A stretch of DNA of 64,000 nt, from positions 21,659-85,658 of the forward strand of contig DAOUKQ010000010.1 of assembly GCA_034421135.1 (NCBI GenBank), in the 5' to 3' direction. Positions 40,436 to 46,241 of the stretch are shown piece after piece. The notes under the pieces are model-generated. The model saw nothing but the letters and a program-made list of their open reading frames with translations. It searched no databases and was not told where the DNA came from. Source of the stretch: Dehalococcoidia bacterium. GTDB taxonomy: Bacteria > Chloroflexota > Dehalococcoidia > Bin125. The stretch's first letter is position 1. The number at the start of each line of letters is the position of its first letter. The translations under genes and the position numbers were made by a program.

Positions 40436-40966
40436 ATGACCGACACGCCTACCGCGCAGGACCTGGTTGCACAGTACGTCCGCGCCGTTCCCGACTTTCC
40501 CGAGCCCGGCATCCTGTTCCGCGACATCACGCCGCTGCTGGCGGAACCGGTGGCGTTTGCCCGCGCGCTCGATTGGCTCTGCGAGCGCTGCGATGGTTCC
40601 GACGCGGTTGTCGGCGTGGAGTCGCGAGGCTTCATCCTCGGCGCGCCCGCAGCGCAGCGGCTGGGTCTGCCCTTCGTCCCGATCCGCAAGGCGGGCAAAC
40701 TGCCGGCAGATACGATCGCTCGCTCCTACGATCTCGAGTACGGGTCGGCGACCATCGAGATGCACACCGACGCGCTCGCCGCCGGCCACCGGATCGCGCT
40801 GGTCGACGACCTGCTCGCTACCGGCGGAACTGCGGAGGCGGCCATCCAGCTGCTCCTGCAATCGGGCGCCGATATCGCCCGCGTCGCGTTCCTGATCGAG
40901 CTCGAAGGGTTGAACGGGCGCGATCGGTTGCATCCGCATGAGATTGATTCGATGCTCGTCTACTGA
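40436..40966 (+). CDS. apt: adenine phosphoribosyltransferase
   Basis: PRPP-binding motif ALVDDLLATGGTAEA and Apt-wide similarity. Confidence 0.85.
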   Translation: MTDTPTAQDLVAQYVRAVPDFPEPGILFRDITPLLAEPVAFARALDWLCERCDGSDAVVGVESRGFILGAPAAQRLGLPFVPIRKAGKLPADTIARSYDLEYGSATIEMHTDALAAGHRIALVDDLLATGGTAEAAIQLLLQSGADIARVAFLIELEGLNGRDRLHPHEIDSMLVY

Positions 40967-40985
40967 GTCCAGCAAGGAACGCACC

Positions 40986-41876
40986 ATGGCCAACGACCAG
41001 GGCACTGATCAGGCGACCGCGCAGCTAGCCGTGATTGGCGGCTCGGGCTTCTACCGGATGCCCGGCCTCAGCGACGTCGAGGCCTGGAGCACCGACACGC
41101 CGTTCGGCAGCCCGTCAGACGAGATCATGATTGGCACGCTGCACGGGAAGCGAATCGCGTTTCTACCGCGCCATGGCGTTGGACACCGGCTGATGCCGCA
41201 CGAAATTCCGGTGAGAGCCAATATCTGGGCGCTCAAGGCGCTCGGCGTGCAGGGCATCCTGGCCGTGTCCGCCGTGGGCTCGTTGCGACAGGAGATCGTG
41301 CCCGGACACATGGTCGTGCCCGACCAGATCATCGACCGCACGCGAGGCGCGCGTCCGACGACATTCTTCGGCGATGGCATCGTCGTCCATGTCGGCTTCG
41401 CCGACCCGTTCTGCGCCGATCTCAGCTCCCGTCTGGTCGAAAGCTCCGGCCGCATCGGACAGACGGTGCATGCCGGCGGCGCGTACATCGCGATGGAGGG
41501 TCCGCTGTTCAGCACGCGCGCCGAGTCGCACATGTATCGCTCCTGGGGCGCGTCGATTATCGGGATGACGGCCGTGCCCGAAGCGAAGCTGGCTCGCGAG
41601 GCCGAGATTGCGTACGCCATGCTCGCAACGGCGACGGATTACGACGTGTGGCACGAGTCCGAAGCGGATGTCAGCGCCGACGCCGTGGCCCAGGTCGTCG
41701 CGCAGAACGTGCAGAACGCGCAACAGATCATTGCCGATCTGGCCGAACACCTGCCGGAAGACTGGACATCGACCGCGGAGGGTGCGCTGCGCGGCGCGAT
41801 CATGACCGACCCTCAGCGGATTCCGATGGAAACGCGCGAACGCTATGCGCTGCTGATCGACGGTCGATTGTCGTGA
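40986..41876 (+). CDS. mtnP: S-methyl-5'-thioadenosine phosphorylase
   Basis: MTAP/PNP family motifs (AVIGGSGFY, LPRHGVGHRLMPHEIP). The start is the internal Met MANDQG. Confidence 0.8.
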   Translation: MANDQGTDQATAQLAVIGGSGFYRMPGLSDVEAWSTDTPFGSPSDEIMIGTLHGKRIAFLPRHGVGHRLMPHEIPVRANIWALKALGVQGILAVSAVGSLRQEIVPGHMVVPDQIIDRTRGARPTTFFGDGIVVHVGFADPFCADLSSRLVESSGRIGQTVHAGGAYIAMEGPLFSTRAESHMYRSWGASIIGMTAVPEAKLAREAEIAYAMLATATDYDVWHESEADVSADAVAQVVAQNVQNAQQIIADLAEHLPEDWTSTAEGALRGAIMTDPQRIPMETRERYALLIDGRLS

Positions 41877-42856: not shown

Positions 42857-43741
42857 ATGGCGCTGTCTCTGCGACTCGGCGACGCGAGCGAGTTTGTCGA
42901 GATTCGGCGTGCGTACGACCGCGACTACCTGGCGAACCTGCTGCGCGCAGATCGCTACAACGCGGCGTACGCACTCGCGCAGCTCGACGATGAGGCGTGG
43001 ATGGACGCGGAGTTTTATGTCAGCCGCACGTCTGACGGCGAGGCGGTGGTCTGCCACTCCCACGGCGGTCTCGGTTTTGCGACCACGCTCTCGGGTCCCG
43101 AACAGGGCGTGCGTGCGATCCTCGAACTGCACCCCGGATTCCCCACGACATTCGCCATCGCCGGCTTGCACCACCGCGAGGCGCTTGAGACCATCTACAC
43201 CTTCCGCCAGGTCACGCGGATGCTGCGCATGCTGGTGACGCGCGACTCCTTCCGTCCCGTGAACCTGCCGGCGCAGCCGATGGTCGGCGCGCACGTCGAT
43301 CTGCTCAATCGGCTCTACAACGCCGAAGGCGATCCGACGCACTACCGGCGCGAGCACATCGTTGACGGCTGTTACTGGGGCGTCGTCGATGAAGAGCGGC
43401 TGGTCGCAGTCGCCGGCACGCATGCGATTGGACGCACGCACGGCATCGCGATCCTGGGCAACGTGTTCACCCATCCCCGATTTCGGGGTCGCGGCCATGC
43501 GACCACCGTGACCTCGGCGGTGACGGCCGCCTTGCTGGAGCAGGTTGACGAAGTGGTGCTTTCGGTCGACCCGGACAACATCCATGCGGTCCGCGCGTAC
43601 GACAGACTCGGCTACCGGCAGGTCGGTGAAATCTATGAAGCGTCCGCAACGCGACATACCAGTACGCTGATTACCGCTATCCGACGATGGGCCGCGCGAC
43701 GCCGCGGCCCCGACGGGGAGCGGGAGGTCGTCAGCACGTGA
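42857..43741 (+). CDS. GNAT family N-acetyltransferase (two-domain)
   Basis: C-terminal acetyl-CoA-binding motif [13 protein letters not shown]...RAYDRLGY. Confidence 0.6.
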
Positions 43742-45015
43742 GCCGACAGGTGAGCCCGACAGGCAGCGATATCGCCGATCCACGGCTGGCCGAGTACGGC
43801 GAGCAGCGCATTGCCTGGGCGGCTCGCGAAATGCCCGTCACGGCGCAGATCCACGAGCGCTTCGCGCGCGAGCGACCGTTTGCGGGCCTGCGGATCGCCG
43901 GCTGCCTGCACATCACGTCCGAAACCGCAAATCTCGCCCTGGCGCTACAGGCGGGCGGCGCAGAGGTCACGCTCTGCGCCAGCAATCCGCTCTCGACGCA
44001 GGACGATGTCGCCGCCGCCCTGGTGGAGCGAGCAGGGATCAGCGTCTACGCGATCAAGGGCGAGTCGAACGAGACCTACTACGAGCACATCCACAAGACG
44101 ATCGACGCCGGCCCGCAGATCACGATCGACGACGGCGCAGACCTGGTGTCCACGCTGCACAGCGATCGTCGCGAGGCGCTGGACGCGGTCCTGGGCGGAT
44201 GCGAGGAGACCACGACCGGCGTGATCCGCTTGCGGGCAATGGCCGCCGATGGCGCGCTCGCGTATCCGATCATGGCCGTCAATGACGCCGCGACCAAGCA
44301 TTTCTTCGACAACCGCTACGGCACGGGTCAGAGCGCGCTGGACGGCATCATCCGGGCGACCAACATCCTCCTTGCGGGCAAGTCGGTTGTGGTGGCCGGT
44401 TACGGCTGGTGCGGCCGCGGCGTGGCCTCGCGAGCCGATGGACTTGGCGCGCATGTCATCGTGACCGAGGTCGATCCGCTGCGGGCCCTGGAGGCCGTCA
44501 TGGACGGCTATCGTGTGATGCCGATGGCGGACGCCGCAGCCGAGGGCGACATCTTCATCACAACGACCGGCGATGTGCACGTGATTGACGCGCCGCACTT
44601 TGCCCAGATGCGGTCGGGTGCGATCCTCGCCAACGCCGGACACTTCAACAACGAAATCAACCTCGACGCGCTTGCGGAGATCACGGAGCAACAGCGCGAA
44701 CTCAAGCCCTACGTGACCGCGCACACAACCAGCGATGGACGTGAATTGCTGGTCCTGGCCGACGGCCGCCTGGTCAACCTGTCCGCCGCCGAGGGACATC
44801 CGGCGAGCGTGATGGACATGTCGTTCGCCAACCAGGCGCTGGCGGTCGAGCATCTGCTCCAGGCCGACCCGGCGCTCGAGCCTGGCGTCCACAACGTTCC
44901 TTCAGCGATTGACCAGAACGTCGCGCAACTCAAACTGGCGAGTATGGGCGTGGAACTCGACACACTGACGGCAGAGCAGGTTCGCTACCTCAGCTCGTGG
45001 GATGAGGGCACATGA
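43738..45015 (+). CDS. ahcY: adenosylhomocysteinase
   Basis: AhcY similarity over the full length, including the NAD-binding domain [14 protein letters not shown] overlap with the GNAT stop. Confidence 0.9.
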
Positions 45016-46241
45016 CCACATCTCCGCAATCCACCGCGCACGACCTGAACATCGGTGGTCTGTGGACCTCGGAGTCGGTCACTGAAGGCCATCCCGACAA
45101 GGTCTGCGACCAGATCTCCGACGCCGTGCTCGACGCCTGCCTCGCCGGCGACCCGGAGTCGCACGTCGCTTGCGAGACGGCCGTCTCCTCGGACTTGGTG
45201 ATGGTCTTTGGCGAAATCACGACAAGCGCCGCCATCGACATTGAGCAGATTGTTCGCTCGACGCTGCGCCGAATCGGCTACACCGACCGTGCCTGGGGCA
45301 TCGACGCCGACACCTGCAAGGTGATCCTGTCAATCAACCGTCAGTCGCCCGACATCAATGCCGGCGTGCGGGGATTGGCCGGCGAATCCGCACAGGGCAG
45401 TGACGATCCCTTCGACCGACACGGCGCCGGCGACCAGGGCATGATGTTCGGCTACGCCTGCGACGAGACCGAGAGCCTGATGCCGCTGCCGATCGAGTTG
45501 GCGCATCAACTCACTCGCCAACTGAGCGTGGTTCGCCGCAGCGGCGACGTCGATTGGCTGCGACCGGACGGCAAGGCGCAGGTCACGGTCGAGTACGCAC
45601 ACGGTCGGCCGAGCCGGATCGACACCATCGTGGTCAGTACGCAGCATGCCGAAGACGTTTCGCAATCCGAGATCGCGTCGGCGATCCGGTCGCATGTGAT
45701 TGATCAGGTGATTCCCGAGGGGATGATCGACGATCGCACCAACGTGTATGTGAATCCGTCGGGGCAGTTCATCGTCGGCGGTCCGCTCGCCGATGCCGGC
45801 CTGACGGGTCGCAAGATTATTGTCGACACTTACGGCGGCATGGCCCGTCACGGCGGCGGCGCGTTCTCGGGCAAAGACCCGTCCAAGGTCGACCGCAGCG
45901 CCGCCTATGCCGCTCGCCATGTGGCGCGGAGCATCATTGCGGCGGAACTCGCAGAGCGGGTTGAAATCCAACTCAGCTACGCGATCGGCAAGGCCGAACC
46001 GACCAGCCTGGCGCTGGAGTCGTTCGGTACCGGACGGCTCTCGAACGATGCATTGACCTCATTGGTCGGCGAGCAGTTCGATCTCCGGCCCGCCGCCATC
46101 ATCCACCACCTTGATCTGAAGCGCGCAATCTACCAGCAGACCGCCGCCTACGGCCACTTCGGACGCCCCGATCTCGACTTGCCCTGGGAGCAAACGGATC
46201 ACGCCGATGCGCTCCGCGACGCGGCGGGCCTGGGCGACTGA
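45012..46241 (+). CDS. metK: S-adenosylmethionine synthetase
   Basis: [17 protein letters not shown] and the [19 protein letters not shown] motif. ATGA overlap with the ahcY stop. Confidence 0.9.

Follow-up and report, generated by a model that had tools for sequence, protein, structure and literature searches.

A methyl-cycle operon of Dehalococcoidia with a putative adenosine kinase of the 3KD6 type and a conserved tandem GNAT beside ahcY

Here we describe a group of six co-directional open reading frames (ORFs) in a 64-kb window, the whole stretch of DNA that was analysed, from a Dehalococcoidia bacterium (Chloroflexota; G+C ~65%). The genes lie on the + strand at 40436-46241 in the order apt, mtnP, pfkB, GNAT, ahcY and metK. 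It is probable, in our judgement, that this one operon makes S-adenosylmethionine (SAM) and clears the by-products of its use, with the PfkB-family kinase taking up adenosine and the GNAT, a two-domain acyltransferase, acting as a partner of AhcY and the kinase that acylates a metabolite of the cycle. The operon itself is of a known kind, and the recycling of SAM that it encodes is ordinary biochemistry. What is new is a proposed function, adenosine kinase, for the kinase family represented by PDB entry 3KD6, which would be the first for that family, and the recognition that AhcY has, in much of Chloroflexota, a conserved partner in an uncharacterised GLYAT-like tandem GNAT. The recycling of SAM belongs to core metabolism, and its list of enzymes is generally regarded as complete.

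In the scheme that we propose, MetK makes SAM, and the S-adenosylhomocysteine (SAH) left by methyltransferases is split reversibly by AhcY into adenosine and homocysteine. Reactions that release 5'-methylthioadenosine (MTA) are served by MtnP, with adenine and methylthioribose-1-phosphate as the products, and Apt converts the adenine to adenosine monophosphate (AMP). For all four enzymes this is what their assignment at equivalog level, taken with textbook biochemistry, implies. The 3KD6-type kinase is predicted to phosphorylate adenosine, and possibly other nucleosides, likewise to AMP; by removing adenosine it would pull AhcY forward, against an equilibrium that favours the synthesis of SAH. 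The GNAT, a predicted coenzyme A (CoA)-dependent N-acyltransferase, may acylate the amino group of a small metabolite of the cycle, for which L-homocysteine is the first choice, and acylation of homocysteine would remove or protect the compound.

Layout and conservation of the operon

An earlier interpretation, made from the letters and ORFs of the window (the sequence-only reading), had described these six genes, and all of them are present as + strand ORFs (Table 1). With family membership judged by NCBIfam curated equivalog cut-offs and Pfam gathering scores, the identities that it had given to Apt, MtnP, AhcY and MetK are upheld, all four proteins scoring above curated equivalog cut-offs. 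Apt reaches 202 bits with TIGR01090 (cut-off 186) and 219 bits with NF002636 (cut-off 125), and MtnP reaches 323 bits with the MTA phosphorylase model TIGR01694 (cut-off 275) and 162 bits with PF01048 (PNP_UDP_1). AhcY reaches 633 bits with TIGR00936 (cut-off 498) and contains both PF05221 and the NAD-binding PF00670, while MetK reaches 563 bits with TIGR01034 (cut-off 309) and contains all three S-AdoMet_synt domains.

Table 1. Coordinates of the operon and of the region upstream of it (positions in the window; aa, amino acids; nt, nucleotides)
Feature	Position	Strand	Supporting families
apt, adenine phosphoribosyltransferase, 176 aa	40436..40966	+	NF002636, TIGR01090
mtnP, S-methyl-5'-thioadenosine phosphorylase, 296 aa	40986..41876	+	PF01048, TIGR01694
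PfkB-family kinase, 3KD6 clade, 324 aa; putative adenosine or nucleoside kinase	41873..42847	+	
Tandem-GNAT acyltransferase (predicted), 294 aa	42857..43741	+	
ahcY, S-adenosyl-L-homocysteine hydrolase, 425 aa	43738..45015	+	TIGR00936, PF05221, PF00670
metK, methionine adenosyltransferase, 409 aa	45012..46241	+	TIGR01034, three S-AdoMet_synt domains
Divergent intergenic region between a methyltransferase gene and apt, 88 nt	40348..40435		

The genes are closely spaced throughout. The stop codon of apt (TGA) occupies 40964-40966, and the longest ORF for mtnP would begin at 40938 and overlap apt; the most likely start is the ATG at 40986, behind an AAGGA ribosome-binding site, which leaves a gap of 19 nt. 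Direct reading of the sequence bore out the 4-nt overlaps that had been placed at 41873, 43738 and 45012: mtnP and pfkB share GTGA (41873-41876), the GNAT gene and ahcY share GTGA (43738-43741), and ahcY and metK share ATGA (45012-45015). The gap between pfkB (stop TAA, 42845-42847) and the GNAT gene (start ATG, 42857) is 9 nt and not the 10 nt that had been counted; the description was otherwise correct, and the metabolic reading attached to it is supported. Overlaps of 4 nt are frequent in bacterial operons and are therefore unremarkable by themselves, and it is their conservation that matters. The spacing suggests that the six genes are transcribed as one unit, and the divergent intergenic region upstream of apt is presumed to hold the promoter. 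A scan of the whole window with Rfam gave no family at gathering score and no SAM or SAH riboswitch, and the intergenic region had no Rfam match at E<=1. We found no consensus promoter of the sigma-70 type; the promoter and terminator scans returned nothing above chance, there was no internal terminator signal above chance in the operon, and the hairpin after metK does not exceed shuffled sequence in stability (z 0.31).

A scan with one genome per species yielded 80 Dehalococcoidia loci, onto each of which the proteins of the window were mapped, and homologues of the GNAT and the kinase derive from Dehalococcoidia (Chloroflexota) assemblies. Close relatives keep the entire arrangement, with trx-plsX-hypothetical-methyltransferase on one side of apt-mtnP-pfkB-GNAT-ahcY-metK and rpsI-rplM-truA on the other. 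In Tepidiforma-like loci the trx-plsX and rpsI-rplM flanks are gone and mtnP-pfkB-GNAT-ahcY is still there, and this core persists down to 45% identity of the GNAT and 28% identity of the kinase. A 3KD6-type kinase is encoded immediately 5' of the GNAT gene in 74 of the 80 species loci and ahcY 3' of it in 70 (among the other ten, 4 stop at a contig edge). The sequence-only reading had left it to relatives to say whether the order of the operon, and the place of the GNAT within it, are meaningful, and both proved to be strongly conserved. The junctions are conserved to different degrees: mtnP and pfkB overlap by 4 nt in 64/70 loci, pfkB and the GNAT gene are spaced by -4 to +22 nt in 74/74, and 4-nt overlaps join the GNAT gene to ahcY in 39/70 and ahcY to metK in 33/56. 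In 24 more distant Dehalococcoidia loci, mtnA lies directly 5' of mtnP, and these genes score 362-410 bits with TIGR00512 (cut-off 279) and fall below the cut-off of TIGR00511 (ribose-1,5-bisphosphate isomerase). The ancestral order was probably apt-mtnA-mtnP-kinase-GNAT-ahcY-metK. Neither mtnA nor a second kinase of the AdoK type was found anywhere in the 64-kb window.

Individual loci show further variation. Only ~110 residues of the kinase are recognisable in one otherwise syntenic Dehalococcoidia genome (L005:9475-9777), perhaps because of a pseudogene or an assembly error. In another (L030:10900-12000), an insert of ~1.1 kb between the GNAT gene and ahcY carries short palindromic repeats (CGTCATTCCCGCGCAGGCGGGAATC and relatives) in direct and inverted copies, which resemble repetitive extragenic palindromic (REP) elements or elements like miniature inverted-repeat transposable elements (MITEs). 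One Dehalococcoidia subclade (L041, L043, L050, L051 and L053) has no ahcY-metK after the GNAT gene; in its place, at ~10900-13400 on the - strand, is an ORF of ~800 aa with a very long low-complexity region rich in Ala and Glu.

The PfkB-family kinase and its probable substrate

The kinase is a member of PfkB (PF00294; 88 bits against a gathering score of 25.8) that reaches no NCBIfam cut-off. Residues G36-G37, N180 and E183 of the NxxE motif and D245-D251 (DPTGAGD) are invariant in the alignment of its family. Its best counterpart of known structure is 3KD6, a structural-genomics entry deposited as 'nucleoside kinase from Chlorobium tepidum in complex with AMP' (single-sequence search, E 6e-33; family profile, 391 bits over the full length), and the high full-length score together with a near-identical fold places it in the 3KD6-type clade. 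All other profile matches are much weaker, among them the MJ0406 nucleoside kinase (88 bits), ribokinases (~75 bits) and the adenosine kinase AdoK of Mycobacterium tuberculosis (60 bits). The sequence-only reading had raised the prospect that this protein might cluster with sugar kinases; it groups instead with 3KD6, with the MJ0406 nucleoside kinase as the second-closest structure. All kinases encoded in the slot 5' of the GNAT gene in Dehalococcoidia are of the 3KD6 type, those of Tepidiforma being 40-49% identical to 3KD6 itself.

The argument for adenosine as the substrate comes from a second class of Chloroflexota. A profile search with the GNAT returned 421 clusters at E<1e-30, most of them 260-280 aa long and spanning both domains. 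Among these, the members from Anaerolineae, including the cultured Aggregatilinea lenta, belong to PfkB-GNAT-AdoHcyase triads, which are without mtnP, apt and metK and have flanks entirely different from those of the window. The PfkB protein in the slot of these triads has only 30% identity over 50 residues to the window kinase by BLASTP; it matches the M. tuberculosis adenosine kinase from end to end (E 3e-67 and 1e-72, 230-248 bits) and retains the substrate residues of the latter. In a metagenome sample of 80 loci of the Anaerolineae-type GNAT clade (L099-L178), 62 of which could be assessed on both sides, a kinase fills the slot in 34, of the AdoK type in 32 and of the 3KD6 type in 2; kinase and ahcY are both present at 31 of the 62 assessable loci. 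Two unrelated PfkB subfamilies in one slot read as the classic signature of non-orthologous displacement, and their alternation beside the same two genes supports adenosine kinase as the shared function. Gene context thus gives good support to the view that the 3KD6-type kinase would act on the adenosine derived from AhcY. The adenosine kinase proposed in the sequence-only reading gains strong, if indirect, support from an AdoK of the M. tuberculosis type in the same Anaerolineae slot; membership of the kinase in its own family gives no proof of it. As a separate observation on the same 80 loci, no mtnP homologue is found near the GNAT gene in any of them, and ~20 have mtnA just 5' of the adenosine kinase gene.

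The residues of the kinase give a mixed picture. We take the adenosine contacts of M. tuberculosis AdoK to be Asp12, Gly47-Gly48, Asn52, Phe102, Phe116, Gln172/173 and Asp257. In a profile-profile alignment with kinases of this type, the window kinase keeps the ribose-binding Asp, GG, NxxE and the catalytic Asp, and an invariant Trp lines up with Phe102, the residue that stacks on adenine. It does not pass as an orthologue of the M. tuberculosis enzyme (60 bits, 22% identity by the same method). A number of observations weigh against adenosine as the substrate. Asn52 is replaced by Tyr in the alignment, the counterparts of Gln172/173 and Phe116 vary in the kinase, and a 21-residue lid insert that carries S36 and F37 in M. 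tuberculosis AdoK is absent. A search of the literature found nothing on 3KD6, its biochemical characterisation included, or on a Chlorobium nucleoside kinase, and the deposited name is therefore no proof of substrate. Other genes of the 3KD6 family follow argS or overlap mtnA and have no ahcY nearby, 5 Dehalococcoidia loci have no kinase and mtnP abuts the GNAT gene there, and the tightest coupling of the kinase in Dehalococcoidia is to mtnP and not to ahcY. Because of the mixed picture, inspection of residues does not settle the substrate alone. As to the other contexts, the kinase gene after argS was seen in other lineages (L085, L087, L089), and in three FCB-group-like loci (L081:6001-7960, L092:8001-9930 and L093:1013-2942) a 3KD6-type pfkB overlaps an equivalog-level mtnA by ~35 nt, with no mtnP or ahcY near it. 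Both contexts are compatible with a housekeeping nucleoside kinase.

The coupling to mtnP invites another explanation, namely that the substrate of the PfkB protein is no nucleoside but the pentose from MtnP or a similar sugar; the protein could then be, for example, a ribose-1-phosphate kinase that supplies a pentose-bisphosphate route, a ribokinase, or a kinase of methylthioribose or 5-deoxyribose. The overlap with mtnP is the most conserved of the junctions with a 4-nt overlap, the overlap of 3KD6-type genes with mtnA in FCB-group relatives points the same way, and the model of the haloarchaeal ribose-1-phosphate kinase (NF053626) is matched weakly along the full length (E 3e-7). However, the scores are far under the cut-offs, at 30 bits against 330 for NF053626 and 54 bits against 300 for the ribokinase model TIGR02152, the latter over the C-terminal half only. 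The IF-2B proteins encoded nearby pass the equivalog cut-off as MtnA and are not ribose-1,5-bisphosphate isomerase, the closest structures are nucleoside kinases, and in an alignment by eye Asn14, Lys43 and Asn46 of the E. coli ribokinase correspond to Ala, Ser and Tyr. Adenosine kinases of the M. tuberculosis type occupy the same slot and also directly follow mtnA, and thus the links of the kinase to mtnA and mtnP do not argue for a sugar kinase. A methylthioribose kinase would moreover be redundant, because MtnP already yields the 1-phosphate. We regard a sugar kinase as improbable. A complete pentose-bisphosphate pathway, with a ribose-1-phosphate kinase and a ribose-1,5-bisphosphate isomerase, was also considered and was rejected because of the same MtnA assignments. 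An apparent fusion of MtnP and PfkB (P0157, 504 aa) was set aside as Rosetta-stone evidence, being a single sequence in which an N-truncated MtnP passes into the kinase through a change of frame shortly ahead of the mtnP stop; an error of assembly or sequencing at the GTGA overlap is the probable cause.

The tandem GNAT as a partner of AhcY

The GNAT passes PF00583 with 46 bits (gathering score 20.7). The match lies in a C-terminal GNAT/FR47 domain at ~155-256, and the N-terminal 140 residues match no Pfam family. A structure model (pLDDT 90) has two GNAT-like halves, a pseudo-GNAT at about residues 1-140 and an FR47-like domain with the sequence R210-G-R-G213-H-A215; R210, G211 and G213 of this CoA loop (RGRGHA) are invariant. 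The top structural matches are GLYAT (glycine N-acyltransferase), PamZ, MshD and histidine acetyltransferase, all of them enzymes that acylate amino acids or small amines; VipF and other tandem GNATs match as well, and identity to these matches is 10-19%. The protein has no match to Pfam Gly_acyl_tr_N or Gly_acyl_tr_C and falls short of the MshD model TIGR03448 (21 bits against 163) and the RimI model TIGR01575 (22 against 86); RimI proteins are single-domain, whereas the GNAT here has two. It and ten distant relatives reach no NCBIfam cut-off, and longer hits in a representative library are chimeric or frameshifted with no informative extra domain. The GNAT thus matches no named family and, as the sequence-only reading had it, is the unexplained member of the operon, with the two domains and the length of 294 aa confirmed.

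Invariant in both Chloroflexota clades of the GNAT are R-G-x-G (the CoA loop), the motifs AGTH and GNVFT, Arg-Met where the two domains join and, towards the end of the catalytic domain, one Tyr and one Glu. This pattern suggests a working active site whose acceptor pocket is well defined. The linkage to ahcY extends down to ~34% GNAT identity, a tie whose tightness the sequence-only reading underestimated. The GNAT gene keeps its place between those for a probable adenosine kinase and SAH hydrolase in two Chloroflexota classes. In three Chloroflexota-like metagenome loci (L116:900-2105, L127:6776-7987 and L146:1719-2924), a gene for an archaeal-type SAM synthetase (PF01941, ~550 bits) immediately follows it, and ahcY lies 2-4 kb beyond. 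The GNAT stays even where a non-orthologous kinase or SAM synthetase has been substituted, which marks it out as a strong candidate for a reaction or a point of control in the cycle that has yet to be described.

Which step this might be is a matter of speculation from gene context and fold, which point weakly to the acylation of an amino group in the methyl cycle. L-homocysteine is favoured as the acceptor because it is the other product of AhcY, because its best analogues by structure transfer acyl groups to amino acids or a cysteinyl amine, and because the gene sits between those for enzymes that make and clear the products of AhcY. The GNAT could then be an unrecognised enzyme of the Chloroflexota methyl cycle that, with the adenosine kinase, removes both products of AhcY, or that prevents the formation of homocysteine thiolactone; we hold this specific version to be unlikely. 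The literature that we searched contained no GNAT-ahcY-adenosine kinase operon. It also yielded no role for N-acetylhomocysteine in bacteria, which counts against the proposal, as do the 6 Dehalococcoidia loci that are truly without ahcY beside the GNAT gene and the 26 of 62 (~40%) Anaerolineae-type homologues that have no methyl-cycle neighbour. The flanks examined around these unlinked homologues (NUDIX, nuclease and histidine kinase genes) have no common theme.

The main competitor to a metabolite acyltransferase is a protein acetyltransferase that tunes flux by modifying AhcY, the kinase or MetK on a lysine or the N-terminus. The persistent adjacency to ahcY, often with translational coupling, would suit such an enzyme, some of the tandem GNATs that match in structure use proteins as acetyl acceptors (VipF, for example), and relatives are labelled 'RimI-like' by the Joint Genome Institute (JGI); the RimI model is the one that the GNAT falls short of, as given above. 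We hold this explanation to be unlikely, on a par with the specific version of the acylation proposal. Least likely of all is a housekeeping or detoxifying acetyltransferase unrelated to the methyl cycle and trapped in a vertically inherited string of genes: every linked example is from one phylum, Chloroflexota, the 26 unlinked homologues are in unrelated contexts, and the most distant GNAT homologue examined is also unlinked, yet the linkage outlasts complete turnover of the flanks, divergence to ~34% identity, a change to a non-orthologous kinase and, at three loci, an archaeal-type SAM synthetase in place of MetK, with intergenic distances that stay between -4 and a few tens of nucleotides.

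The reading that we prefer, an adenosine kinase and a cycle-specific acyltransferase flanking the reaction of AhcY, would reach further than this operon, as the 3KD6 family extends well beyond Chloroflexota. Cultured hosts exist in Tepidiforma and Aggregatilinea lenta, and both ideas can be tested with recombinant proteins.

Neighbouring genes and known systems

Upstream of the operon, a SAM-dependent methyltransferase gene (39514-40347, - strand, 277 aa) diverges from apt across the 88-nt region and is found in the same position in most Dehalococcoidia loci. The NCBIfam model that it matches best is a methyltransferase of daptide-type ribosomally synthesized and post-translationally modified peptides (RiPPs), with 107 bits and under the cut-off of 175. 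Next to it (38258-39763, - strand) is a gene for a 501-aa protein with a long acidic stretch rich in Gln and Ser and no Pfam match, syntenic between plsX and the methyltransferase gene down to ~30% identity. A radical-SAM protein gene ~6 kb upstream of the operon (33387-34226, + strand), whose product would generate 5'-deoxyadenosine, has luciferase-like monooxygenase, beta-lactamase-fold, amidohydrolase and carboxylesterase genes as neighbours. On the other side, a long run of ORFs (46305-63727, - strand) is convergent with metK. Synteny shows that rpsI-rplM-truA adjoining the operon is conserved in the clade of the window, and the ORFs at ~48-64 kb resemble, by eye only, rplQ-rpoA-rpsD and the secY ribosomal-protein cluster.

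Known systems close to this one include gene clusters of the activated methyl cycle (metK, ahcY and adenosine kinase), for example the estradiol-induced cluster of Denitratisoma oestradiolicum (PMC7448270). Like the window, that cluster brings together MetK, AhcY and a kinase that removes adenosine, the removal of adenosine driving the hydrolysis of SAH. The window differs in adding the MTA branch (mtnP, apt and, ancestrally, mtnA) to the same operon, in having a kinase from another PfkB subfamily, and in the conserved tandem GNAT between kinase and ahcY. The M. tuberculosis adenosine kinase (Rv2202c; PDB 2PKF, 4O1G) shares with the window kinase the PfkB fold, the ribose-binding Asp, GG, NxxE and DPTGxGD; the window kinase lies outside its family at 22% identity, without the lid insert and without conservation of Asn52 and Gln172/173. 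Relative to 3KD6, the window kinase is a divergent branch at ~30-33% identity. The window GNAT is 12-18% identical to bovine GLYAT (7PK0) and to the FR47-like two-domain GNATs 1SQH and 3EC4, and it is not a member of the family of mycothiol synthase MshD (1OZP, 2C27), there being no evidence of mycothiol biosynthesis here. Compared with the MtnP-MtnA module of methionine salvage, the operon of the window and of its close relatives lacks mtnA, and the cluster contains no downstream salvage genes; mtnP is shared, and in the deeper branches of Dehalococcoidia mtnA stands directly 5' of it.

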